From positions 192,001-256,000 of the forward strand of contig CAVSHT010000011.1 in assembly GCA_963727895.1 (NCBI GenBank): DNA of 64,000 nucleotides, read 5' to 3'. The position numbers and the translations under genes were made by a program. Origin of the DNA: an uncultured Methanosarcinaceae archaeon. Lineage in GTDB: Archaea > Halobacteriota > Methanosarcinia > Methanosarcinales > Methanosarcinaceae. Under the pieces are notes generated by a model. It saw only the letters and a program-made list of their open reading frames with translations, was not told where the DNA came from and did not search any database. Numbering within the stretch: the stretch's first letter is position 1; every line of letters starts with the position of its first letter. Positions 20,937 to 57,277 of the stretch are shown piece by piece.

Positions 20937-21013
20937 TGGCGGGCCCGTAGGGATTTGAACCCTAGGCCGACTGGTTAAAAGCCAGTCGCTCTGCCTGACT
21001 GAGCTACGGGCCC
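20937..21013 (-). tRNA. tRNA-Lys(TTT), intronless, encoded CCA
   Basis: GGGCCCGTAGCTCAG...CTGG-CT-TTT-AA-CCAG...GGTTCAAATCC...CGGGCCCGCCA cloverleaf. Confidence 0.97.
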
Positions 21014-27451: not shown

Positions 27452-30400
27452 TCACTTTTTTGTTTCTGTTTCTATTTTTGAACGTATCATCTTAGCACGC
27501 TTAGAGATTTTTGTAGCTTCTCGATTCCTTTTTATGTAATTCAACAAGGATGGATAATGCTCTAAGAGACTAGCAAGCTCAAGAATATTTTCCCCTTTGG
27601 TTTTTTCCATAACTTTAATTGCTCGCTCAAAATAAGGTGTGGATTTGAGATACTTTTTTTGTTTGTATAAACAAATTGCTAAATTTTGAAGGCGATTACA
27701 CATATCTGGATGTTCAGGGCCAAGTGCTTTTTCTGTGATTTTCAAGGCACGAGTATACAGAGACTCGTCTTCAGAATATCTGCCTATATCAATATAAACT
27801 CCGGCTAAATTATTAAGGCACGTACTTATATTTGGATGTTCAAAGCCAAGCACTTTTTCTGTGATTTTCAAGGCACGAGTATACAGAGGTTCAGCTTCAG
27901 AATACCTGCCCAAATCAATATAAACTGTGGCTAAATTATTAAGGCAATTACCCATATCTGGATGTTCAGGACCAAACACTTTTTCAGTGATATTCAATGC
28001 TCGGATTCGTAGTGATTCGGCTTCTGAATACCTACCCAAATCTCTGCAAACTCCAGCTAAGTTGTCGAGGCTCTCTGCTATAGCTGGATCATCTGAATTT
28101 AAAATAGTTTCTCGGATTTTTAATGCACGTACACTTAGCGGTTCCGCTTTAGAATACTTACCTAAATATCTGTAAAGTTCCGCTAAATTGTTAAGACTCT
28201 CTGCTATAGCTGAATTATCTGAATTTAAAGTATTTTCTCGAATATCAAGTGCATGCAAATATAGTGGTTCTGCTTCAGAGTACCTACCTAAATCGTAATA
28301 CATCCTCCCTAAATTATTGAAACTTTCAGAAATATCAAAATGTTCAGGTTCCAGAATATTCTTTCTGATTTCCAATGAACTTTTTAAAAGTACCTCACTT
28401 TCCTTAAAACGTGCACTTTTATGCAGGTAACTACAGGTTGCGTTTAACAATTTTGCGGACTCTTCAGTTTCGAGGTCCCACAACCCAATACTTATTCTGC
28501 ACAGGTATGAGCATGTGGAAGAAGTTTCTCGCAAAGTTCCCAATTTTTATACTCAACCTCAGGAAATGCACGGTTTACAGCTTTAACAACACTTTCAGCC
28601 CAGAGTTTCTGTTCATTTATTTCCATTCCGTCTTTAAGAACAGCCTGTACAAGATGGTGGATATCATAAGTATGGGAACCAGCATCACGATTAATTAAAG
28701 AGTATTGCCAAAGTGGATTAAGAATTTCATCAAAAACTAGTGGATCTATATCAGCTTCAGCAAATGCGGCAGAAATTAACGGTCCTAACTCATTCGCCCC
28801 TTTATAAAAAATATCAGATGGTATTTCGTTTGGATTGAGAAAAGCACTGACATATACAAAATCTGCTGATACCTTTGAATTTTTCGTTACTTTTTCAAAA
28901 TTCATTAACCAAGTGGCGGCTATCGATTCTGGGTATTTATTAGTATTGATTGGAGATTTTTCTAATAACTTCAAACCACGTTTATTGTAGCTGACCAAAT
29001 AATCTTTGAAACTGGAGTTGTTTGCATAAATATAGGCTCCTGCTTGTTCTAAAGCCAATGGGAGATAACCAAGTTCATGTACAAGCTTTTCAAGGGCTTC
29101 AATCTCGGATTGATCCAGATTATTACGCAGCGTGCGTTTCAAAAGGAAACTTTTAGCTTCGTCAGGAGTCATTGCCTCCATATCAACAAGTTTTGTAATG
29201 TCCAATTTATCAAAAACTCTTAACCTTGAGGTTAGGAGAATATGCCCTTTGGGATCTGGGAGGAGATAACGCTTTACAAAAGAAATGTCATCTGCATTGT
29301 CAAAAACAAGTAACCATTTTTCGTGGGTTCTAAACCAGTTTAATACAGATGAAACAATATTATTCTGGTCGGAGTCGTTTTTAACCGGTAAATTCAATAA
29401 TTTTGCAATATCGACGTAGCTGGAAATTATTTAATCTTCAGAATAAGCTTTTACCCAGAATATAAATTCATATTCAGCACGATAACGATAAGTATATTCA
29501 ATCGCAGTTTGTGTTTTCCCAATACCTCCAAGTCCACACACAGCAACAGGTTGAGATACAACAACCGTATTCTCTGAAAGAAGAGCTTCACGTATTTGTT
29601 TTAACTTGTCTTTACGTCCTGTAAAACGAAGATTTCTTGAATAAGGAATGTTTGATATTGCGGTTTTTGTTTCTTGCTCAGTCTCAGAAGATGTCAGTTT
29701 TTTTAGATTTCCAACATATGAGTTTTCACTATTTTGTTTAGTTAGAAATTGAAAAGAAGAATCACCCGTTTGCTGCATTTGTTCATTTAAAACAGCAATT
29801 ATCTCCGAAGGAAATTTTGGGGCATGATCATACTCCACTACAGCAGAATTATTTGATATTGTAATTGGAATTCCATACTTGACCAGAACATCCATAACAG
29901 GTTGAGTTTTAATTTTAAATTTGTTAATGAACTCTTCATGGATGAAAGAATTATACGGTCCAAAGTCTTCAGAGCGAAGCCTGATTGTTATAAGAATCTC
30001 GCCAGAATCATTGAAAACGACCTTTGTGTTGTTATGCACCCACCAGAAAACACTATTATGGACATCAAGTGAAAAATTCAGAACGGTTTTAATCGAAACT
30101 CTATTGCTGTCAATATCAAGCTCATCTGCAAAACGTAAAAGCGCCGCCACCATTCTTTTACGCTCATGAGGATCAAAGATTAAACCTTCTGAACATTTAG
30201 TAAGAAATAATTTGGAATGGTATTTACAAATATCCATTAAATCATTAACTAAATCATCAGGCACACTTTTAATGGCACTATGTAATTCAGATGTGTTATT
30301 TCCGTATGCATCGTCAATCCATGCAGCAGTTAAATATTGATGATTTTTACGAATCTGTCTTTGATCATCTACAGAATACGTGCTAGACTTCTTTGAATTA

Positions 30401-30735
30401 AATTCACCGTCAAATTCTGCACCTAAATTTTCAGCTTTAGCCTTAAGTTGGGGAAACTTAACGATATCACATTGCATTCCTATATCATGTAGATAAATGC
30501 CTGCAAATAGCAGGTATATTTCTTGTTCTGAAAAATCCTTGTCTAATTTCGCCTGAAGTAACTTATCCACAAAATGAGCAAGCCTTTCACTATGTTTAAC
30601 ACCATGATCAGTATAATCCTGTACTATTCTAGGAGCATCACTTGCCCAGATCTCTTCCATTGCCCCACGAATAGAATTAAGGCTATCGAGCAAACGGCGA
30701 TCAGAAATGTATTCAGTTATACTTTTAGTTTCCAC
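27452..30735 (-). pseudogene. HD phosphohydrolase-STAND/NB-ARC ATPase-TPR protein (NLR-like), one in-frame stop and one frameshift
   Basis: HD motifs DHGVKH, YLHDIG, RFADELD; Walker A GLGGIGKT; Walker B LLVFDN; GYLPLAL; IHHLVQ; 42-aa TPR repeats; TAA at 29431-29433 is in frame with the next ORF; frameshift near 28490. Confidence 0.85.
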
Positions 30736-31123
30736 TTTAGTAAATGTCTCCGTTGAAATGTCACTTCGTTTTGTTGAAGCATCCGAATTCTGAATGACAA
30801 GCGAAATTTTTGATGTAAATAATTTTATAAATTATTATTTAAGCTTTGTTAAATTTTTGTGTGTTTTTAAGTTATCATTCGAAATTAACGAAAATGGATG
30901 ATATTAACGTAGTTTTGGGAAAAACAAAGTAAACATTTGAACCCAATTTCAAGACAAAAAGCTAATACTTCTTGGGTCAAAACAACTAAAAATAGTTAAA
31001 AGCTACGAAAAATCAGGTGCAGTAAAGACGATCAATTCCCGAAAATGGAAAATAACCGGCATTTACTGCGTTTTAAATTATGATTTGTAGAGTGCTGGAA
31101 ATATTTCTCAGCTTTTTTTAAAA

Positions 31124-33791: not shown

Positions 33792-34055
33792 ATAATCAAA
33801 TCCGTCAGGTAATGAACTGAAGTTAGATTAATTTAGGTTTAAGAGATTCTATATGAGTTTGAAAAATACTTAATTTAATGGGAAATTGAAATTTAGGTAA
33901 CTGGAATAAGAAGTTATCCTAAAAAAAGTTGTCCTGAAAATGATACTAAATTTTAAAGGTTGACAAATTGAGTATATTTATGCGTAGAGCGTTTTTCCAC
34001 AGCTATATATAAAATCATGCGGATATGTTGTATTATAAAAGGAGAACACCATAGA

Positions 34056-34274
34056 ATGAGAGAGTTTACTGTTGTCATCGAAAAGGATGAGGATGGAATT
34101 TACATAGCTTCTGTTCCGGAACTCCCTGGATGCCATACCCAGGCTGAAACTCTTGATGAGTTAAGCAGAAGGGTAAAAGAGGCAATTGAACTCTATTTTG
34201 AAGTTGAAGCCGAGAAAGGAAGAGAAAAGCATCTTGATTTCATTGGAATACAACAAGTTAAAGTTGAGGTCTGA
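34056..34274 (+). CDS. hicB: HicB-family antitoxin (short, no DNA-binding domain)
   Basis: VVIEKDEDG, VPELPGCHTQAET, KEAIELY. Confidence 0.9.
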   Translation: MREFTVVIEKDEDGIYIASVPELPGCHTQAETLDELSRRVKEAIELYFEVEAEKGREKHLDFIGIQQVKVEV

Positions 34275-34516
34275 TGAATAAAATATTACCTATTCCGGCA
34301 AAAAAAGTTGTGAAAGCACTTGAAAATATAGGGTTCGAGCAGATAAGGCAAAAGGACAGTCACTTATTTTTACGACATCCAGATGGAAGAACAACAATAG
34401 TCCCAATGCATCCTACTGAAAAGATAGGAAGAGGAATGATTAACAAAATAATAAAAGACGCAAAAATTACGCGGGAAGAATGGATTGAATTAATAAAAAG
34501 CCTTGTTCTTTTCTGA
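34274..34516 (+). CDS. hicA: HicA-family toxin
   Basis: VKALENIGF, RQKDSH, HPDGRTTIVPMH; TGATG translational coupling with hicB. Confidence 0.9.
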   Translation: MNKILPIPAKKVVKALENIGFEQIRQKDSHLFLRHPDGRTTIVPMHPTEKIGRGMINKIIKDAKITREEWIELIKSLVLF

Positions 34517-35101
34517 TGAAGCCTGATGATATTTAAGCAAGTGCTATTGATAAAATAAAACAAAGTTACTGGAAATCAGTTACGGATGAATCGTGTCCTA
34601 CGTTGGTGCTTTCAGTCTAACCTCTGTGTTTCTTAAGCTTTTTTACCTTTGATGTGTGGAGTTATCGAAGGAAACAAGTGTATTCCTACATATTTTGGAA
34701 TGATTGAGAAAACAAACACATAGGCATTTGTAGAAATTCTGTCCCGAAAGGGCAATTTCTTTATAATAAACAAGCGATAACATAGAAATCATGCTTTACG
34801 TGCCACGCTTTTCGCCAAAATTATGTTGATTCTACATACTTGAGGTAATTTGTAATTTTTCCGATATTTGCAATTTTACAGAAAATTAGGTACACTGCCC
34901 GGGATTCTTAACACCATACGCTACTTTCGAAACGAATCAGGGCATCCGAGTGGAAATAAGATAGAATAGGGATCAATGCTATGCTAATCTTCTTATCTTT
35001 ATTCAATACTGTAAAAAAGCATATCAGTTAATTGATGAGTTCTAAACTTTTACTAAACTCCCAATTGACCAATGGTTCTCATACTGCCATATACCCTAAT
35101 T

Positions 35102-35135
35102 AATGCATAGGTTTTATTGTAAACCTGTGCATTTC
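35102..35135. repeat. Palindromic ~34-bp motif, copy A
   Basis: AATGCATAGGTTTTATTGTAAACCTGTGCATTTC. Confidence 0.7.
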
Positions 35136-35187
35136 AATTATTTTTTGTCTAAATTTCAAGATAAAATTAGGCTAAAAAAACCATAAA

Positions 35188-36610
35188 ATGATAGTGATAA
35201 AAGAAATAAAAGATACCAATGAAGTGAGATTGCAGTTTGTAAATATTGGTTTTAAATATGGATTGGCCACATCAAACCCAAATAATAAAAGTGTTATTTT
35301 TAAACCATATGATAGAATAATTGAAAGAGGAAAAGAAACAGGATACATTTCATATTTATTTTTAAACACTCATACAGAAAGCTCAACTTTCTATGAAAAT
35401 GAAGTTAATAATGTTGATAATATTTTACATTCTGAAGAATTTCTGTCTAAAATCTCTGCAGAATATATAAAAACTCTTGGTTGCATTTGCTATACCAAAG
35501 GTAAGCAAATATTGTTTTATCCAGCATATACTTCAAACTTTTTTAAAGTTTTCACAGATAGAGATAAACCTTTAAAGCACGAAAAAAACATATGGCATTG
35601 GTACTCAAAAATAGATATATATGCTTATAACATATATTTCTTCATGAACTGCCCCAGATGCAATAGTTCCAGTCACAATAAGAATGGTATAGTTGGCGGG
35701 CGTCAACGGTACAAATGCTCTGATTGTGGATATAACTATACAGTAGAGCTAAAATCAACTGCTTTTTCCGCCTCTGTCAAAAAACAGGCTTTACAACTCT
35801 ATCTTGAAGGATTGGGCTTTCGTTCAATAGGAAAATTTTTAGGGGTGAGTCATGTTTCTGTCCAAAGATGGATCAAGAAATTTGGTCAGGAGTTAGAGAA
35901 CCTAAAAAGTGAAAATGAGATATCTATTGTTGAAATGGATGAGATGCACACTTACATCGGTAACAACAAAAATATTGCTGGATCTGGATTGCTGTTGATA
36001 GAGTTGGGAAAAAGTTCATCAACTGCTCTTTTGGCAGCAGAGGAACGGAAACTGGAAAACTACTCTGGGAAAAATTGAAGAAAAAAGAGATTGGAGAAGT
36101 GATGACAGATCACTGGAGGGCATATGCAGAGTTTATTCCAGAAAAGATCCATACTCAATCCAAAGCAGAAACGTATACTGTTGAAGGATATAACAGCATA
36201 TTGAGGCACTTTTTGGCAAGGTTGAGAAGAAAGACAAAGTGTTATACGAAGAGTCTTGAAATGCTAAAGTACTAGGTTATTCTATTGATGAAATAAAGAA
36301 AGAAAGAACTAGATATAGTTAAGTAACAATACCAAAATATTTAATTACTGCACCAATTATTGATAATAGTAGTAATAAAGATTCATTTTATCACTTTGAA
36401 TTTTACGTCCAAGTTGATTCATCTATTTCATCAAAAAAACCAGGTATAATTGCCCTGCCTAATCAAGAAAATCTTCAAATACCAATATCTGGAAAAATAA
36501 TGTATACTGATTATGAAATAGATATTCCTAATTGTAAAGGGAAGTTGATAATAGTTGCAACAAAAGTAGCTGGAATACTTAAAGACGAGACTCTTATTAG
36601 ATTCTCTTAA
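35188..36610 (+). pseudogene. Hypothetical gene interrupted by IS1 copy 2
   Basis: 135 codons before the IS (35188-35593); a 91-codon open frame KYLITAP...LIRFS* after it (36335-36610). Confidence 0.6.
35594..36333 (+). mobile_element. IS1-family element, copy 2 (740 bp)
   Basis: IRs GGCATTGGTA.../...TAACAATACC; insA ATG at 35644; slip site altered to AACAAAAA; premature TAG at 36273; no clean TSD. Confidence 0.95.
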
Positions 36611-36736
36611 AAGCAGTCTTAATGGGGTCACTTTACGAATGAAATAAAATAACAGAAGAAGAAAGAAAAGAGGAATTAGAGTGAGCTATCTTGAAAGTAT
36701 TCACTCAACATGTAACGACGAATAAATAGTGGATAT

Positions 36737-36774
36737 AGGGTATCATCCCGATTTTAGCTTAGGTGTACGCTAAG
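36737..36774 (+). mobile_element. Solo Tn3-family-like 38-bp terminal inverted repeat
   Basis: AGGGTATCATCCCGATTTTAGCTTAGGTGTACGCTAAG: exactly 38 bp with GGGTA...ACGCTAAG. Confidence 0.6.
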
Positions 36775-36962
36775 AAACAATTACTAATTTTGGGTACGCA
36801 AAATCGATAAGAAGAACCATGTTAGGGGTACCGATTATACAGGCGCATTAATTGTCCTCATTTTCTTTTAGAAAATCTTCCGATTTTAAGTTATATCAAA
36901 TCTATGAAAGATATGACATTTTTTCACCTACAGCCTAACCTAGAGATTGTCTCTCCCTCGTA

Positions 36963-36976
36963 CACTTGACAGTACC
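36963..36976 (+). mobile_element. Isolated IS6-like right end
   Basis: CACTTGACAGTACC, reverse complement GGTACTGTCAAGTG; no transposase remains. Confidence 0.35.
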
Positions 36977-37014
36977 TTTATAAGATAAAATCTGTATATT
37001 TTTGCTATTTATTC

Positions 37015-37049
37015 AATGCACGGGTTTTATTGTAAAACCTGTGAATTTC
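37015..37049. repeat. Palindromic ~34-bp motif, copy B
   Basis: AATGCACGGGTTTTATTGTAAAACCTGTGAATTTC, a direct repeat of 35102-35135. Confidence 0.7.
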
Positions 37050-37139
37050 CCTAAAACGCACATGCTTTTCTTCGAATAACAAGCACAACTAATGAAAGTA
37101 CTCTCCGTTCTTTTTTTTGACTATTAAGCCCTCATTACC

Positions 37140-37273
37140 TTGGGCAGTAAGGTTGTCTCGATTTTGGTTTTTCAAAACCGTCCTAAAACTAATCAGTGAA
37201 TTGCCATCGAAGGCTCAAGTGTGACTTTGATCACGGATGCTAAATTGGCCTTTTAGGCAATTCCACTGCCCAA
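37140..37273 (+). ncRNA. Candidate bridge/seek RNA of the IS110 element
   Basis: Closing stem TTGGGCAGT/ACTGCCCAA enclosing two stem-internal loop-stem arms whose loop segments match the target flank and the element's right end. Confidence 0.7.
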
Positions 37274-37292
37274 ATAAATTTGGCGATCTAAT

Positions 37293-38557
37293 TTGATTTA
37301 AGTCATAAACAAAGCTTGTGGTTTAGACATTCACAAACTCTTTTTCATTGCTACAATTCTCAGTATATCTGGTGAAAAACAACAGCAACGTTTCAACAGA
37401 GATGATGAAGGAATTTTAGCCCTTAAAAATTGGGTAATATCAGAAAAATGTGATGTTGTTGCATGTGAATCAACCAGCGAATTTTAGGTTCCGATTCATG
37501 ATTCATTGGTAAAGCATCTAACTGTGATAGTTGGAAATGCGCGAGATATGAAGGTATTTACCCATACAAAAACAGATAAGATTGACTCAGAAGTCATTGC
37601 ACAACTTGCACTTAATAATATGATTCAGCCATCAAGAGTTTTTCCAAAGGATCATAGATATTTTAGATCATATGTTCTACTTCGGTTAACACTTGTACAA
37701 AAAAGAACAGATTTAAAAAATAAAGCTCACTCAATTCTTGCATCTGAAATTCAATTTTTGCATCTGAAATGCTACACCTGAATAATGTGCTGACAGACGT
37801 TTTTGGCAAGAATGACAGAATGATCTTATTAGGAATCTCTTCAGGTAAGAGTGTTGATCAGATTATTGCAAGCCTCTCTCCAAATGTTCGGAAAAAAGCT
37901 GCTCAGATAAGAGAAATTCTTGATCGAGAAATTTCTCAAAGTGCTGCATTTAGACTTCAGATCTGTCTGAAACTCATAAAAAGTCTTGATGATGAACTCG
38001 AAGCTTTAGAAACAGAAATTTTCAATTATGCTTCTCGAAATCATAAGCGAGAAATGGAGATTTTAATGTCAGTTCCAGGTATAGGGGAACTTGGTGCGGC
38101 AATTTTACTTGCTGAAATAGGCAACTTTAAGGATTTTTCTTCTGGAAATAAGCTTGCTTCTTGGCTTGGTCTAGTTCCTAATGTGTATCAATCTGCAGAT
38201 AAATACTATAACGGCAGAATCACAAAGAGGGGATCAAAAGTAGCAAGGTGGATTCTGACACAGATTGCTCAAGCAGCAGCAAGAAAGAAGAATAGCAGGT
38301 TAAAAGAGTTTTTTAACAGAAAAAAGAAGTTGATTGGACATGCAAAAGCAATTATTGCCTTAGCAAGGAAAATTGCAACGATAATATGGCATCTTATTAC
38401 AAATGATGAGATGGACGAAGATGAAACCGGATATCAAAAGGGAGAAATCCAAAAGAGAAAGATTATTGAAACTGAGATTTTTTCGGTTGATGAACGGATT
38501 AAAATAATTAGTGAAATATTTGCGATTATGGGGAAAAAGGATCAGGAGAGCACGTGA
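37293..38557 (+). pseudogene. IS110 DEDD recombinase/transposase
   Basis: CGLDIHK, VACEST, KTDKIDS, SVPGIG, LGLVPNVYQS, ALARK; TAA at 37299, W>TAG near 37485, 20-bp duplication frameshift at about 37731-37770. Confidence 0.92.
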
Positions 38558-38585
38558 GGATAATCTCCTCATGTACTTTCATGCT

Positions 38586-38830
38586 AAATCGTCCTATTGA
38601 GCGAAAGCCCAATCCTTCAAGATAGAGTTGTAAAGCCTGTCTTTTTACAGAGGCGGAAAAAGCAGTTGATTTTAGCTCTACTGTATAGTTATATCCACAA
38701 TCAGAGCATTTGTACCGTTGACGCCCGCCAACTATACCATTCTTTTTGTGATTAGAACTATTGCATCTGGGGCAGTTCATGCAGAAATATATGTTATAAG
38801 CATATATATCTATTTTTGATTACCAATGCT
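38586..38830 (-). mobile_element. IS1-family element, copy 3 (5' fragment only)
   Basis: Left IR AGCATTGGTAATCAAAAATAG; MNCPRC...GFRSIGRF stops at the IS110 right end. Confidence 0.93.
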
Positions 38831-50998: not shown

Positions 50999-51968
50999 TC
51001 AATCAAGTTTCAAGTTTAATCCTTTGCTTTTAAGCTCTTCAATCAGCTCTTTTGAGTATTCGGGCACAGATCCAGGTTTTGACGCAATATGAGTCCCAAG
51101 AATACAGGCAATTGAAGCTGCTTTTGAAACGCCATGCCCTGAAAGATAGGTATAAAGAAAACCTGCTGAAAAAGCGTCTCCAGCTCCAACGGTATCTGCA
51201 ACCTCAACAGGAGTAGTTTCTATTTCTTCATAAATTCCTTTATGGTAAACAGCCGCTCCTTTTGGTCCTTTTGTTATGCAAATTACCGAAATTTCAGGAT
51301 ATTTCTCAGAAACAAGGCTGCAAAACGCTTTATAAGTGGAAAGAGATTTGCAAACATCTACTGTACTATAAAGCAGGTCGCAAATAGTTGCAGCCTCCTC
51401 TTCGTTCATTTTTAGAATTGTTGCACGTTTGAGCGAAGAAAGTATCCATTCTTTTTTGTAGTAACCTGTTCTCAGGTTTACATCGTAGAAGAAATGTTTT
51501 GCTTTTATTTCCGAAAATAGCCTTTCGAGGGTTTTTCTGTTTTCTTCAGTTCTCTGGGCAAGGGTTCCAAAGCAGAAACACGTCCCATTCCTCCTCTGAA
51601 AGATCTCTGAACTTCTTTTCATCCGGTGTTATTGCATCCCAGGCAACATCTTCATTAATCGTAAAAACAGGAATTCCTTCAGCCTGTAGTTCGACAGTAA
51701 CAGTACCTGTAGGTCTTTTTTCATCAATTAGTATATAAGAAGTATCAATTCCCATTGCTTCAGCCTTAGCGAGCAGGATTTTTCCGAGATCATCGTTTCC
51801 GACTGCCGTAAGTACAGACGGTCTTGCTCCCAATTTTGCAAGATGAGCTGCAAGATTTAGCGGAGCTCCTCCAAGATGCGCTGAACCCCTGATAATATCA
51901 AAAAGAGCCTCTCCAAAAGTGAGCACTTTAATTTGCTTAATGCGGTCTGAATGAGGATTTTCGTTCAT
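50999..51968 (-). pseudogene. PfkB-family carbohydrate kinase, frameshifted
   Basis: GGAPLN, FGTLAQR, DVNLR, DTVGAGDAF; 1-nt shift near 51575. Confidence 0.9.
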
Positions 51969-52453
51969 TATATGGTATATTGATTCCTGAATGATAATAA
52001 TTTGACTTGCGAATACCAAAGAAGAATTTGAACAAGTTAATAATGAATATTGATAAGTGTATGTTTATTAAACTTGTTTTTCTAGTTATATGAAGAAATA
52101 ATTGCACTCAACCTGTTTTTTTGTTTTTTCTTTATCACAGAATTTAAATATATTGAAAGCGCAGAAGATGCTTCCCACAATTATTCTTTTAACAAAACGA
52201 AATGAAGATTTAAATTAATAAAAAAAGAAAGGTTTTAAGTTAAAAAACTAATTTGAAAGCTTCATAAAAAAATAACTATAAAAAAGTAGATTTTATATAA
52301 TAAAAAACGTTGATGCTTTTTTAATAAATATATGTTTATCAAATAATAATTATTGTTGTGATTTAACTCTTCAGATGATAAGTTTTATAGAGATTCATTC
52401 ACATTTACTTGGAGTTTCATTAATAGGAAGTTTCATTAATAGGACTTGAGATT

Positions 52454-54603: not shown

Positions 54604-57277
54604 TTACTTCAGGACTTCTACAAAGCCTCTCGTGCCATCAACACGGACATACTGACCGTCTTTTAAGATTTTAGTAGCATTTTCTATGCCGACAACAGCC
54701 GGAATACCATATTCCCTTGCAATTACAGAGCCGTGCGTCATCATGCAACCTACCTCCACCACTAGAGCTTCAACGGAATAAAACAGAGGAGTCCAGCCAG
54801 GATCAGTAAAAGGCGCTACTAAAACATCTCCTTTGTTCAACTTTGCTGCTTCGGGTTTGAGTATAACCTTTACGTACCCTTCTGCGACCCCGGCAGAAAC
54901 AGGAGTCCCGATTAAAGCGTTTTTTGGAGCTTCAACATCGCTCCTCACACCCGTAATGACTTCTCCTTCACTGGTCATAACTCTTGGAGGAGTCATCTTT
55001 TGGTACTGTTCGTAGACTTTTTTACGTGAGTTTATAAGCTGTTTCAGGTCTTCATTAAAACGATTTTCTAACAATTCAACCAGTTCCTCTAGATACAAAT
55101 AAAACACATCTTCCTCTCTTTCCAGAACCCCTCGTTGATGTAAATCCCGTGCTTCTACCAGGACAGCCTGTCGATATATCAAAAAATCGAACAACACAAT
55201 ACTTAGGAAATTCACGTAAGCCTGTAGAATTTCGATAAATGAAAAGAAGTCTGGACATAATTTTTGCTTTTAAGTTTCCTACATGAGTAGCGCTAATGCG
55301 TTCCAGAATTTTTTGTATGGCTTCTTGAGCTTCCTTTCTGCCTTGTTTGAACCGGTTTCGATGCTTACCAGTTTCATTGCTTTTTAGATGGCTTATAATG
55401 GATGGAACAAGAAGAGTTGGAGCTTCCCACCATCGAATATTTGAAATGTCGATTTCACCGGGACAGCGCATACCATATAATTCCATGAACCTTTCCAGGT
55501 CGGCACTGAATATATCTCCACCTTTTACTTTACTGAGCCCTTTATAGAAAGTACGGTCTTCTGCTCTTTCCAGATAATCTACCACTTCAGGATATTTTCG
55601 TGCTGTATCAGCCAGATACCCAATCATTAATCCCATATCACCTGTCACATTTCCAGGAGGAGATTTGTTTAACGTGTCAACATCAAGTTCTTTATTCAAC
55701 CATATTTTTGTCAAATGGCTTGCTATGGGAAGAACAATGAATGATAAAGGTATGTACATCATGCTTCTGTTCAGTTCTTGTAGCAAATTCCCCATACTTT
55801 CCTGAACTCTTTTTATTCGCTCTGTTCCTGATGTTTGCATGATACTACGTCTATACTTATCGATAACCTGTTCCATAGGGGATGTGGCTCGCTCAATTAT
55901 GCTTGAGGGATCGAGAAACAGTAAATTGTTAACAATTAACGGGATACCCTTTAGATAGAGCAGGAACATTGGTTTGAGTAATTTGAAAACCTGTTTTGCT
56001 GTACCTTTGTTTGTGTTTGCTTCCTGTTGAAATATTTCACTTGATACTATCTTTTGCCAGAGCATTTCCCATTAATTCATCCAGAATAGTGATTTTCTAG
56101 GTCAAATATCGCCGAAAAAACTTACTGTACAAAAAAGAGGTGACATCGAAAAAAAGTATGCCTCCGGCTTCTACAATTGCTGGGCTGGAACCGGATATAG
56201 AAGTCCTTCCTAAAGGGAAATATGCCTTTAAAAATAGAAATTCCCATAGGTTTCATGGCATCTGTCATCGTCTGCATGTATGCCAGAGAAAAAAATACGT
56301 GAAGTTTACTGTCATATAGTTTAGGAATTGGATAAAGAGTAGTGATAGGTCGGCTTTGTAAGATATAGAACCTGTCCCCTGCCAGGCACCACTCAATATC
56401 CTGTTCCGAGCAGTAGTGCTTTTCTATTTTTTGACCTAGTTGAGCCAGCTTTAAAATCTTATCATCAGAGAGAACTTGCTGTGTTTTGAAGTTCAGGAAC
56501 AAGTTCCTTAGTCACTGTTCCCCCCTCTGTGACTGGATAAATAGCTTTCTTCTTTTCTGCGATTTTCTTTTTGACAATCTGACCCTCGCGGACCTGATAA
56601 GAGTCAGCTGAAACAATTCCTAAAACCAGAGCCTCACCCAATCCAAAGCTGGCATCAATGGAAATAGTATTCCTGTGTCCGGTGACGGGATCCACGGTAA
56701 ACATAAGCCCGGAAACTTCCGGAAATACCATTTGCTGCACTACTACAGACAAATAGACTGAACGGTGATCAAATCCGTTTTTTATACGGTAGAGAATTGC
56801 CCTGTCGGTAAATAGTGAACTCCAGCATTTTTGCACAGCTTGAAGGAGTTGATCTGATCCTTTTACGTTCAAATAAGTTTCTTGCTGACCTGCAAAAGAA
56901 GCAGTAGGCAAGTCTTCGGCTGTAGCACTTGACCGAACGGCATAAGCCTGTTCTTCCCCCACTATTTTCCATGCATCAAGGATAAAAAGTTTAATTGCTT
57001 GAGGTATGAGAACAGTTAATAGATGGTTCTGAATCAGTTTTCCTAGCTTACTAATTTCCTCAGTTTTATCTGGTTTTAACTGGTCAAGCAAATCAAAAAA
57101 TCTGTATATCTCAGAGCTTTCTGCAATAAAATCACGGTAAGCTGATGTTATGATACAAAATCCAGACGGGATAAGAAATCCAGCCTTTCTTATTTCTCCC
57201 AGATTAGCGCCTTTTCCCCCAACTTCAGGCAAATTTGTCCTATCGACTTCATTAAAGTGCATTACATAAACACTCAT
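54604..57277 (-). pseudogene. Rifamycin phosphotransferase-like PEP-synthase-family protein, multiple frameshifts
   Basis: ATP-grasp (VGGKGANL, AVRSSATAED, ILQSRPITT), central SPPGNVT/YGMRCPGEID domain, C-terminal swivel TDPGWTPLF..THGSVIAREYGIP; at least three breaks. Confidence 0.88.

Follow-up and report, generated by a model that had tools for sequence, protein, structure and literature searches.

An apparently inactivated NLR-like HD-CE/NB-ARC/TPR gene in an uncultured Methanosarcinaceae archaeon, a probable conflict receptor with an exchangeable head

Do three adjoining open reading frames (ORFs) in the genome of an uncultured Methanosarcinaceae archaeon preserve the remains of an archaeal NLR-like immune receptor, and if so, what would its enzymatic head have acted on, and is the gene truly dead? 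The DNA analyzed here (hereafter, the window) comprises 64,000 nucleotides of contig CAVSHT010000011.1 (assembly GCA_963727895.1), and the gene in question, which encodes HD-CE, NB-ARC, DUF7779, and tetratricopeptide repeat (TPR) modules in three pieces, occupies positions 27452..30735 of its minus strand. Sequence comparisons place it as a pseudogenized member of a catalogued family of HD-CE-headed NB-ARC-TPR proteins of Methanosarcina-type archaea. We put at roughly 70% the probability that a single-gene, NLR-like conflict receptor of these archaea was recently inactivated at this locus.

The three minus-strand ORFs span 30735..29431 (434 amino acids [aa]), 29397..28492 (301 aa), and 28543..27452 (363 aa). 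A single TAA (29433-29431) separates the first two, which lie in one frame; the third is in the +2 frame relative to the second, with which it overlaps by 52 nt. Aligned by tblastn, the intact homologue P0002 (1076 aa) ran collinearly through all three: its residues 1-746 fell on 30735-28495 in one frame (83% identity) and its residues 744-1076 on 28501-27503 in a second frame (62% identity). Both P0002 and another homologue, P0003, were 83% identical to the window gene across residues 1-747. Counted from the sequence, the read-through protein has ~1093 aa. Coordinates, Pfam profiles, and motifs all agree with an earlier sequence-only reading of this DNA, which had rebuilt the three ORFs into one protein of about 1090 aa with an HD domain, an NB-ARC-type ATPase, and 42-aa TPRs.

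The tripartite architecture was recovered by Pfam profiles on both the separate pieces and the read-through protein. The HD-CE module, the predicted effector, takes up residues 1-325 (29761..30735); the profile match itself (PF24391; residues 39-258, 29962-30621) scored 111.5 bits against a cut-off of 27 (E = 7.3e-32), and 110.1 bits on the read-through. The NB-ARC NTPase (residues 375-572, 29020..29613) contains the TAA, and its profile (PF00931) reached 41 bits against a cut-off of 23.5 (E = 1.7e-10) when that codon was read as X; the separate ORF pieces score below the cut-off. Its Walker A motif, GLGGIGKT (residues 401-408, 29512..29535), is invariant in the homologue alignment. In the Walker B motif, LLVFDNADD (residues 475-483, 29287..29313), L475, L476, D479, N480, A481, D482, and D483 are invariant while V477 and F478 vary, and in the GxP motif, GYLPLAL (residues 556-562, 29050..29070), L558, P559, L560, and A561 are invariant. 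The winged-helix region after the NB-ARC is DUF7779 (PF25000; 28615..28887), with E = 3.6e-10 on the piece and 1.8e-9 on the read-through (38.1 bits, cut-off 27). The putative sensor region (27455..28414) consists of KLC/NPHP3-type 42-aa repeats, matched on the pieces by TPR_12 (E = 7.6e-91), TPR_10 (E = 2.4e-72), and TPR_NPHP3 (E = 9.1e-57), and its DNA forms tandem units with a period of 126 nt over 27678-28293. In the orthologue alignment the number of 42-aa units varies through gaps and insertions of entire units; P0003 and P0007, for example, have additional units, and P0010 and P0015 have fewer. Such variation is what would be expected of a fast-changing sensor. No DNA-binding or nucleic-acid-binding domain was detected in the Pfam scans of the pieces and of the read-through.

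Intact fused homologues were sought and found, with up to 83% identity and, in two other genomes, at the same locus. A word-indexed protein search scored 8000 candidates and found 1030 proteins at E <= 0.001, 120 of which were listed. Among these 120, at least 21 carry HD-CE with NB-ARC and/or DUF7779 by precomputed Pfam annotation, and at least 13 clusters of >=950 aa join HD-CE, NB-ARC/DUF7779, and TPR. The combination, which the sequence-only reading had not recognized as characterized, is therefore already present in the databases: the named sources of the listed HD-CE/NB-ARC matches are Methanosarcina sp., Methanosarcina sp. MTP4, Methanosarcina sp. Mfa9, and a Euryarchaeota metagenome-assembled genome (MAG), and the clusters go by "tetratricopeptide repeat protein" or "FxSxx-COOH system TPR protein" in their source annotations. 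The distribution is patchy. Uninterrupted full-length matches occur in only 2 of 24 congeners, namely G016 (83% identity, a 1250-aa open frame) and G008 (67%, 1024 aa), and another congener, G022, has a distant match (41% over residues 6-584). In a one-genome-per-species collection, 77 loci encode HD-CE relatives, both in archaea (Methanosarcina, Methanothrix, ANME-2, Methanocella, and others) and in bacteria (Chloroflexota, Planctomycetota, Bacteroidota, Desulfobacterota-type MAGs, and Firmicutes). An NB-ARC of the same type as in the window gene stands behind HD-CE in 8 of the best 47 of these loci: five close Methanosarcina-type loci, one from a Methanosarcina barkeri MAG, and two from deltaproteobacterial MAGs. 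At two of the loci, from a Pirellulaceae MAG (L055) and a Methanosarcinaceae MAG (L060), the HD-CE match is interrupted, with open frames of 59 and 3 codons in mid-match; these may be further pseudogenes or assembly errors.

The sequence-only reading had proposed a search for effector swaps on the same STAND-TPR scaffold, and such swaps proved real and recent, as seen from both the homology boundary and the tree. Genes in two genomes, G007 and G014, are 77-83% identical to the window at the nucleotide level from 29673/29689 to the 3' end, and show no identity upstream. This boundary corresponds to residue ~350, in the linker directly before the NB-ARC. The head is Metallophos (PF00149) in G007 and PNP_UDP_1 (PF01048; hereafter PNP) in G014; the latter gene lies ~9 kb from an S-adenosylhomocysteine (SAH) hydrolase gene, among PAS kinases, and the former elsewhere. 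For a tree of the NB-ARC-DUF7779 part, 82 sequences were chosen (P0001 plus 81 of the 120 listed), leaving out fragments (P0014, P0017, P0025, P0026, P0037, and P0044), the window's own entry (P0012), two NACHT proteins (P0080 and P0082), and most rows beyond P0088. Another seven (P0011, P0013, P0028, P0029, P0068, P0097, and P0101), which covered fewer than 330 model positions, were removed, so that 75 rows remained, with head labels assigned from the precomputed Pfam annotation of the listed matches. The window gene falls in a 14-row clade (SH-aLRT 100) with 10 HD, 3 metallophosphoesterase, and 1 PNP head, in which two HD rows form the sister group of the PNP row (support 98). The starred branches of the tree force at least 6 changes of the HD label, and all head labels together need 19 changes, compared with a mean of 32.8 after shuffling. 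Farther out, TIR/SEFIR (39 rows) and PRTase-CE (3 rows) heads are found on this chassis. The head is thus a cassette, exchanged with metallophosphoesterase and PNP heads at the linker within one tight NTPase clade.

What, then, is the HD-CE head? Conserved H...HD...D metal ligands define the HD superfamily, and the H...HD...H...H...D ligand pattern is that of binuclear HD phosphodiesterases (PDEs) and nucleases. The window gene has H44/H48, H83-D84, H132, H173, and D204-E-L-D207, and H48, H83, D84, H132, H173, D204, and D207 are invariant in 18 sequences. An AlphaFold model of the module, built from the 18-sequence alignment, had a pLDDT of 85.2 and a pTM of 0.87. When it was compared with 48,161 chains by VIA-align, 35 chains reached Z >= 8, and the best 50 rows, judged by their titles, were nearly all HD-superfamily or PDE-fold proteins. 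GppA (6pbz; Z 12.0, root-mean-square deviation 4.2, 182 residues aligned) and PPX (3rf0; Z 11.7) came first, followed among others by YhaM (10.1), PDE3A/4B (~10), Rel hydrolase (9.2), HD-GYP (8.8), and Cas10d (8.1); by the tool's own caution, however, Z values of 8-12 can be reached by helical proteins through a common arrangement. Also telling against the assignment, Foldseek gave no match to the PDB at E <= 0.001, its best being a weak 0.031, with PPX, HD-GYP, and PDEs. A sequence search of the HD region against PDB chains returned only 3qkb, at a chance-level E of 0.14. The VIA-align neighbors and the invariant H/HD/H/H/D ligands nevertheless support the HD fold that the sequence-only reading had assigned to the N-terminal domain.

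An exhaustive HMMER search extended the HD-CE family to 1040 cluster representatives at E <= 0.001, of which 198 also pass E <= 1e-30. Nearly all matches are N-terminal, and they run to residues ~318-326, past the end of the Pfam model. The segment beyond that model (residues ~237-325, 29761-30025) is a conserved extension of a beta-hairpin, a long helix, a strand, and a helix; the model is highly confident here, and almost every one of the 150 homologues listed aligns over it. The extension is possibly an adaptor or oligomerization element. Partner domains were surveyed at Pfam E <= 1e-6 in 72 of the 147 best cluster representatives (every second one, up to a size limit). NACHT and/or NA-iREase1 accompanied HD-CE in 10 of the 72, TPR only in 7, TPR with PIN-TPR-GreABC in 1, TIR in 2, and EAD2 or EAD7 in 2, while NB-ARC, nSTAND1, KAP, LRR, FGE-sulfatase, pentapeptide, HEAT, and PA-IL were found once each; 40 had no second Pfam family, although they may hold undetected modules. 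HATPase_c occurred in only 2, one of them an ordinary HisKA kinase, which does not bear out the earlier claim that HD-CE domains are usually linked to Hsp90-like modules. The literature searched likewise offered no basis for such a link, no publication behind the Pfam name HD-CE, and no paper that uses "HD-CE" or "PRTase-CE" together with STAND or conflict terms. In two papers of the Aravind group (PMC8195603 and PMC7159879), the modules that are fused to HD-CE are described as parts of conflict systems, and the PNP, metallophosphoesterase, TIR, and PRTase-CE classes as nucleotide- or NAD-processing.

Free nucleotides or nucleotide-derived metabolites are slightly favored over nucleic acid as the HD-CE substrate, because the heads exchanged on this chassis are nucleotide/NAD-processing and because GppA/PPX, PDEs, HD-GYP, and Rel are among the top structural neighbors. 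The best-surviving alternative is that the family is immune but the head is a nuclease acting on DNA or RNA rather than a free-nucleotide hydrolase. Cas3 and Cas10 HD domains do act as nucleases, and the invariant ligand pattern is, as said above, one that nucleases share. The YhaM exoribonuclease and type I-D Cas10d are likewise among the structural neighbors and leave the substrate unfixed; the PADLOC CARF_HD model matches the window pieces (3.4e-4), and the sister Metallophos head carries the PADLOC label "Effector, Endonuclease." We nonetheless consider a nuclease head somewhat unlikely: the top structural neighbors are nucleotide or polyphosphate hydrolases and cyclic-nucleotide PDEs, the scans detected no nucleic-acid-binding domain, and the exchanged PNP, TIR, and PRTase-CE heads act on small nucleotides according to PMC7159879 and PMC8195603.

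Whether the gene is dead turns on two frame breaks and one further difference. Break 1 is an in-frame TAA nonsense codon inside the NB-ARC (29431..29433), where relatives have TCA; the 8 intact homologues aligned all carry Ser or Ala here. Break 2 is a 2-bp insertion (28491..28492) that shifts the frame by +2 and makes a TAA at 28494-28492; homologues read AEYIGLW here, without the two extra bases. The third difference is an ACG at 30751..30753, where DNA alignment with G016, G008, and the locus of Methanosarcina sp. Mfa9 places the ATG start of the orthologues. Six codons downstream lies the first in-frame start of the present ORF, a GTG (30733..30735) that is a Val codon (GTA/GTC) in the orthologues, and P0002 also begins at the corresponding Val. 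A GTG start may thus be tolerated here, which makes the change from ATG to ACG ambiguous. Logan contigs from four public runs (X1-X4) were aligned to the gene, and the conclusions apply to the parts that they cover. At base 29432, contigs of X1 (two), X2 (one), and X4 (one), ~90-99% identical to the window, give TCA, and those of X1 and X2 omit the 2 bases at 28491. At base 30752, X1 and X2 read ATG, and 100%-identical contigs of X3, a run that may be the source sample, keep the window base; these X3 contigs cover 30055-30800 only. That the gene is broken, as the sequence-only reading had held, is borne out by two breaks absent from homologues and contigs, but the first is a nonsense codon and not a frameshift.

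The nonsense change from TCA to TAA and the 2-bp insertion are favored as real because they are of different kinds, neither lies in a homopolymer, and the neighboring genes compared are open; with a TAA in the NB-ARC and an insertion before the TPRs, the full protein could not be made in the source genome. The alternative, that the gene is intact in the organism and the two breaks are assembly or sequencing errors, we regard as improbable. It gains some credit since neither break is covered by a 100%-identical independent contig, the genome is 84% complete despite having 19 contigs, and a PfkB-family carbohydrate kinase gene in the window is also split into two ORFs; these same points weaken the case for a pseudogene. 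The sequence is, moreover, otherwise well conserved, with catalytic and NTPase motifs all intact. Yet a substitution, a 2-bp insertion, and a start-codon change would all have to be explained within one 3.3-kb gene, the nearby amidohydrolase, SAH-hydrolase, and RNA polymerase ORFs are open, the start-codon difference recurs at 100% identity in X3, and a paralogue in the same genome has decayed independently by 5' truncation, stops, and a frameshift. Programmed recoding is rejected, as relatives have a sense codon and no extra bases and the stop is TAA; not being TAG, break 1 is not a pyrrolysine codon either. The split PfkB gene (50999-52019, minus strand) consists of overlapping ORFs that match profile positions 30-115 and 146-295; it is a pseudogene with a frameshift or else a product of misassembly, and bears on the trust to be placed in the breaks discussed here. 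Another overlapping pair on the minus strand (54604-56065), of 203 aa with a PEP-utilizers mobile domain and of 329 aa with no Pfam match at 1e-5, may be a further split gene.

The paralogue, on contig C18 of the source genome (locus L002:208-3458, minus strand), is a second HD-CE/NB-ARC/TPR gene. Its NB-ARC-TPR frame is open (737 aa, with DUF7779 and TPR by Pfam). Its HD part begins at the equivalent of residue ~117, so that the first ~116 residues, including the H and HD ligands, are missing; it also contains an in-frame stop and lies in a different frame from the rest. With the window gene as query, no intact close paralogue was found in the source genome. Both HD-bearing copies thus appear inactivated, the one broken and the other truncated and stopped in its HD half.

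The genomic setting speaks for a single-gene unit. GC content is 0.31-0.36 across 27-31 kb, 0.41-0.44 in the adjoining SAH-hydrolase and amidohydrolase genes, and 0.42-0.46 in the RNA polymerase operon, which agrees with the earlier description of AT-rich DNA between housekeeping loci, although other parts of the window are equally AT-rich. By Pfam scan the neighbors are housekeeping genes and PAS sensor kinases, and the order amidohydrolase, SAH hydrolase, STAND gene, PAS kinase is common to the window, G016, and locus L034. Of the ORFs at the 9 loci compared, the STAND gene alone recurs in all, with no conserved partner gene, and can therefore be taken as a single-gene unit. Around the gene, a search for mobile-element borders turned up no inverted repeats, and its direct repeats were of chance size; the tRNA closest to the gene occupies 20937-21013. 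A sigma-70-type scan for promoters and terminators, whose consensus is not meaningful for an archaeon, gave fewer promoter-like sites than did shuffled sequence. Farther along, a low-GC segment (34000-38600, 0.31-0.36) holds an IS110-family transposase ORF (37769-38557, Transposase_20) and an HTH_23 ORF (35188-36078), which places mobile DNA ~3 kb beyond the amidohydrolase gene. In G014, locus L019 (G014:C1:1156000-1175999), beside the SAH-hydrolase gene, carries PAS kinases of 1130 and 1376 aa, the PNP-headed NB-ARC-TPR gene, and a MEDS-PAS kinase; this region looks like a hot spot where PAS kinases expand and STAND heads vary.

How might such a protein work? By analogy with characterized STAND receptors, and from the company that the HD-CE head keeps, the HD-CE domain would be a metal-dependent phosphohydrolase effector, the NB-ARC (of the AP-ATPase clade) with DUF7779 the switch, and the TPR array the sensor. 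The array would bind a foreign, probably viral, protein; binding would lift autoinhibition, upon which the NB-ARC would exchange its nucleotide and oligomerize. Clustering would activate the HD-CE heads to hydrolyze a phosphoester substrate, with growth arrest or abortive infection as the probable outcome. The antiviral output by TPR-triggered nucleotide hydrolysis that the sequence-only reading had proposed is thus plausible. Such an immune role is consistent with the tripartite STAND architecture, with the fusions of HD-CE to conflict-system modules, with the PADLOC matches of the sister heads to candidate-defence effectors (PDC-S60, 4e-42; PDC-M60C, 6e-25; a "PN-superfamily" effector, 4.5e-18), with the match of the HD-CE part to the C terminus (positions 663-901) of the PADLOC DRT model RT_UG24 (4e-6 to 5e-8), and with the patchy distribution. 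A 2026 Nature survey (PMC13581612) counts 198 of 589 prokaryotic STAND clades as defence-associated, mentions AP-ATPase clades, and gives roughly 90 families.

Several findings weigh against a role in defence. No Avs/AVAST model of PADLOC-DB 2.0 matched the pieces at E <= 0.1 or the intact P0002, P0003, and P0009 at E <= 0.01, nor did any other PADLOC STAND defence model match the pieces or the intact orthologues. The Avs/NLR architecture claimed in the sequence-only reading therefore holds as regards an effector, a STAND NTPase, and TPRs in one polypeptide, but the NTPase belongs to the NB-ARC (AP-ATPase) clade and no PADLOC Avs model recognizes it. Among 10 ORFs scanned with PADLOC at this locus (21.5-45.7 kb), no defence gene was found: 9 had no match, and the tenth, a CDC48-type AAA ATPase, matched generic AAA models only. 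The gene thus lies outside a defence island, and its conserved chromosomal position in three genomes appears less typical of mobile defence cargo. The literature searched holds no experiment on any member of the HD-CE/NB-ARC/TPR family, and queries combining STAND, HD domain, and phage, or Methanosarcina with STAND or NB-ARC, returned no paper on this architecture. In six supplementary files of PMC13581612, the terms HDc, pfam01966, cd00077, "HD domain," Metallophos, and PNP_UDP do not occur, although other names may be used there.

These points raise the question of whether the family could instead be a housekeeping signal-transduction STAND, similar to MalT or AfsR, whose HD domain turns over a signaling nucleotide in response to an endogenous ligand. 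The conserved location next to the genes for SAH hydrolase and PAS sensor kinases, shared by three genomes, and the lack of defence neighbors at the window locus would fit such a role, as would weak matches of the NCBIfam SARP/AfsR regulator model over the NB-ARC and TPR parts and the presence of HD-GYP, PDE, and Rel hydrolase among the structural neighbors. A housekeeping regulator would hardly be expected, however, in only 2 of 24 congeners at full length, with its head repeatedly swapped for unrelated enzymes on a near-identical chassis, with sister heads that match defence-candidate effectors, with HD-CE fused elsewhere to NACHT, TIR, and EAD modules, with both copies dispensable in the source genome, and with no DNA-binding domain detected by Pfam; we consider this explanation distinctly improbable and retain the conflict receptor as the preferred reading.

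Much is known of STAND/NLR-type receptors from bacteria, plants, and animals. For archaea, the literature searched contained almost nothing on them, and no experimental work on the HD-CE head. The window copy, being dead, is of small value by itself; the interest lies in the intact orthologues and in the natural head-swap series. HD-CE, PNP, and metallophosphoesterase heads on one chassis would offer a clean system for the question of the HD-CE substrate, and the series would also be suited to asking what archaeal KLC-type TPR sensors target and how effector cassettes are exchanged. Tentatively, and at less than even odds, one may go further and regard HD-CE as an uncharacterized class of NLR-activated phosphohydrolase effectors which, together with PNP and metallophosphoesterase, is shuffled as a cassette at a fixed linker onto one NB-ARC-TPR virus sensor beside the SAH-hydrolase gene. 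If so, the loss of both HD-bearing copies would reflect the cost (autoimmunity) of keeping an NB-ARC-TPR receptor, and the intact orthologues would make NLR-type receptors of archaea tractable for the first time.

Comparison with known systems sets both the head and the chassis in context. The NB-ARC of Apaf-1 and plant R proteins (PF00931) is shared in that the window gene passes the profile cut-off and has Walker A, Walker B, and GxP motifs; in contrast to those proteins, it is prokaryotic, its head is enzymatic rather than CARD, CC, or TIR, and its repeats are TPR rather than WD40 or LRR. SAMHD1 and bacterial dGTPase deplete deoxynucleoside triphosphates (dNTPs), and HD domains are known as immune effectors. 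By analogy with SAMHD1/dGTPase, Cas3, the Cas10 HD domain, and the C terminus of RT_UG24, the predicted HD-CE head would be an HD-superfamily phosphohydrolase serving as immune output. There is no specific likeness to dNTP triphosphohydrolases, as the EF1143-type 2o6i (Z 7.6) and 2hek (Z 7.9) stand well below the top structural neighbors. Proteins that combine HD-CE with NACHT (NA-iREase1) and pentapeptide, WD40, or TPR repeats have the same N-terminal HD-CE (55-58% identity) followed by a STAND NTPase and repeats, an example being P0082, which its source calls a NACHT-domain protein of Candidatus Argoarchaeum ethanivorans; unlike the window gene, they have a NACHT-clade NTPase with an NA-iREase1 insert and other repeats.

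The FxSxx-COOH system includes genes for a peptide and a radical-SAM maturase. TIR/SEFIR-NB-ARC-TPR proteins of archaea and bacteria ("FxSxx-COOH system tetratricopeptide repeat protein," NF040586) share NB-ARC, DUF7779, and TPR_10/TPR_12 with the window gene, are 45-54% identical to it over the STAND part, and fall in the same tree; P0015 is named after this family by its source. The NF040586 model matches the three window pieces separately (2.8e-22, 2.3e-47, and 1.7e-36; 79, 162, and 126.1 bits, against a whole-protein cut-off of 300), but the head is HD-CE in the window gene and TIR in these relatives, and no FxSxx-type peptide or radical-SAM maturase was found among the Pfam-scanned neighbors (SAH hydrolase, amidohydrolase, and PAS kinases). 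Avs/AVAST proteins (Avs1-5) are antiviral STANDs in which the NTPase joins an N-terminal effector to a TPR-like sensor at the C terminus. The window gene resembles them as an effector-STAND-TPR polypeptide, and also in that heads are interchangeable on one sensor, as described in PMC13581612; it differs in its NB-ARC/AP-ATPase, its regular 42-aa KLC/NPHP3-type TPRs, its lack of a PADLOC Avs match, and its location outside a defence island. Finally, the metallophosphoesterase- and PNP-headed NB-ARC-TPR genes of Methanosarcina (P0021-P0024, G007, and G014) are 70-81% identical to the window gene at the protein level over the STAND part and belong to the same 14-row clade, whereas their N-terminal enzyme (PF00149 or PF01048) is unrelated.

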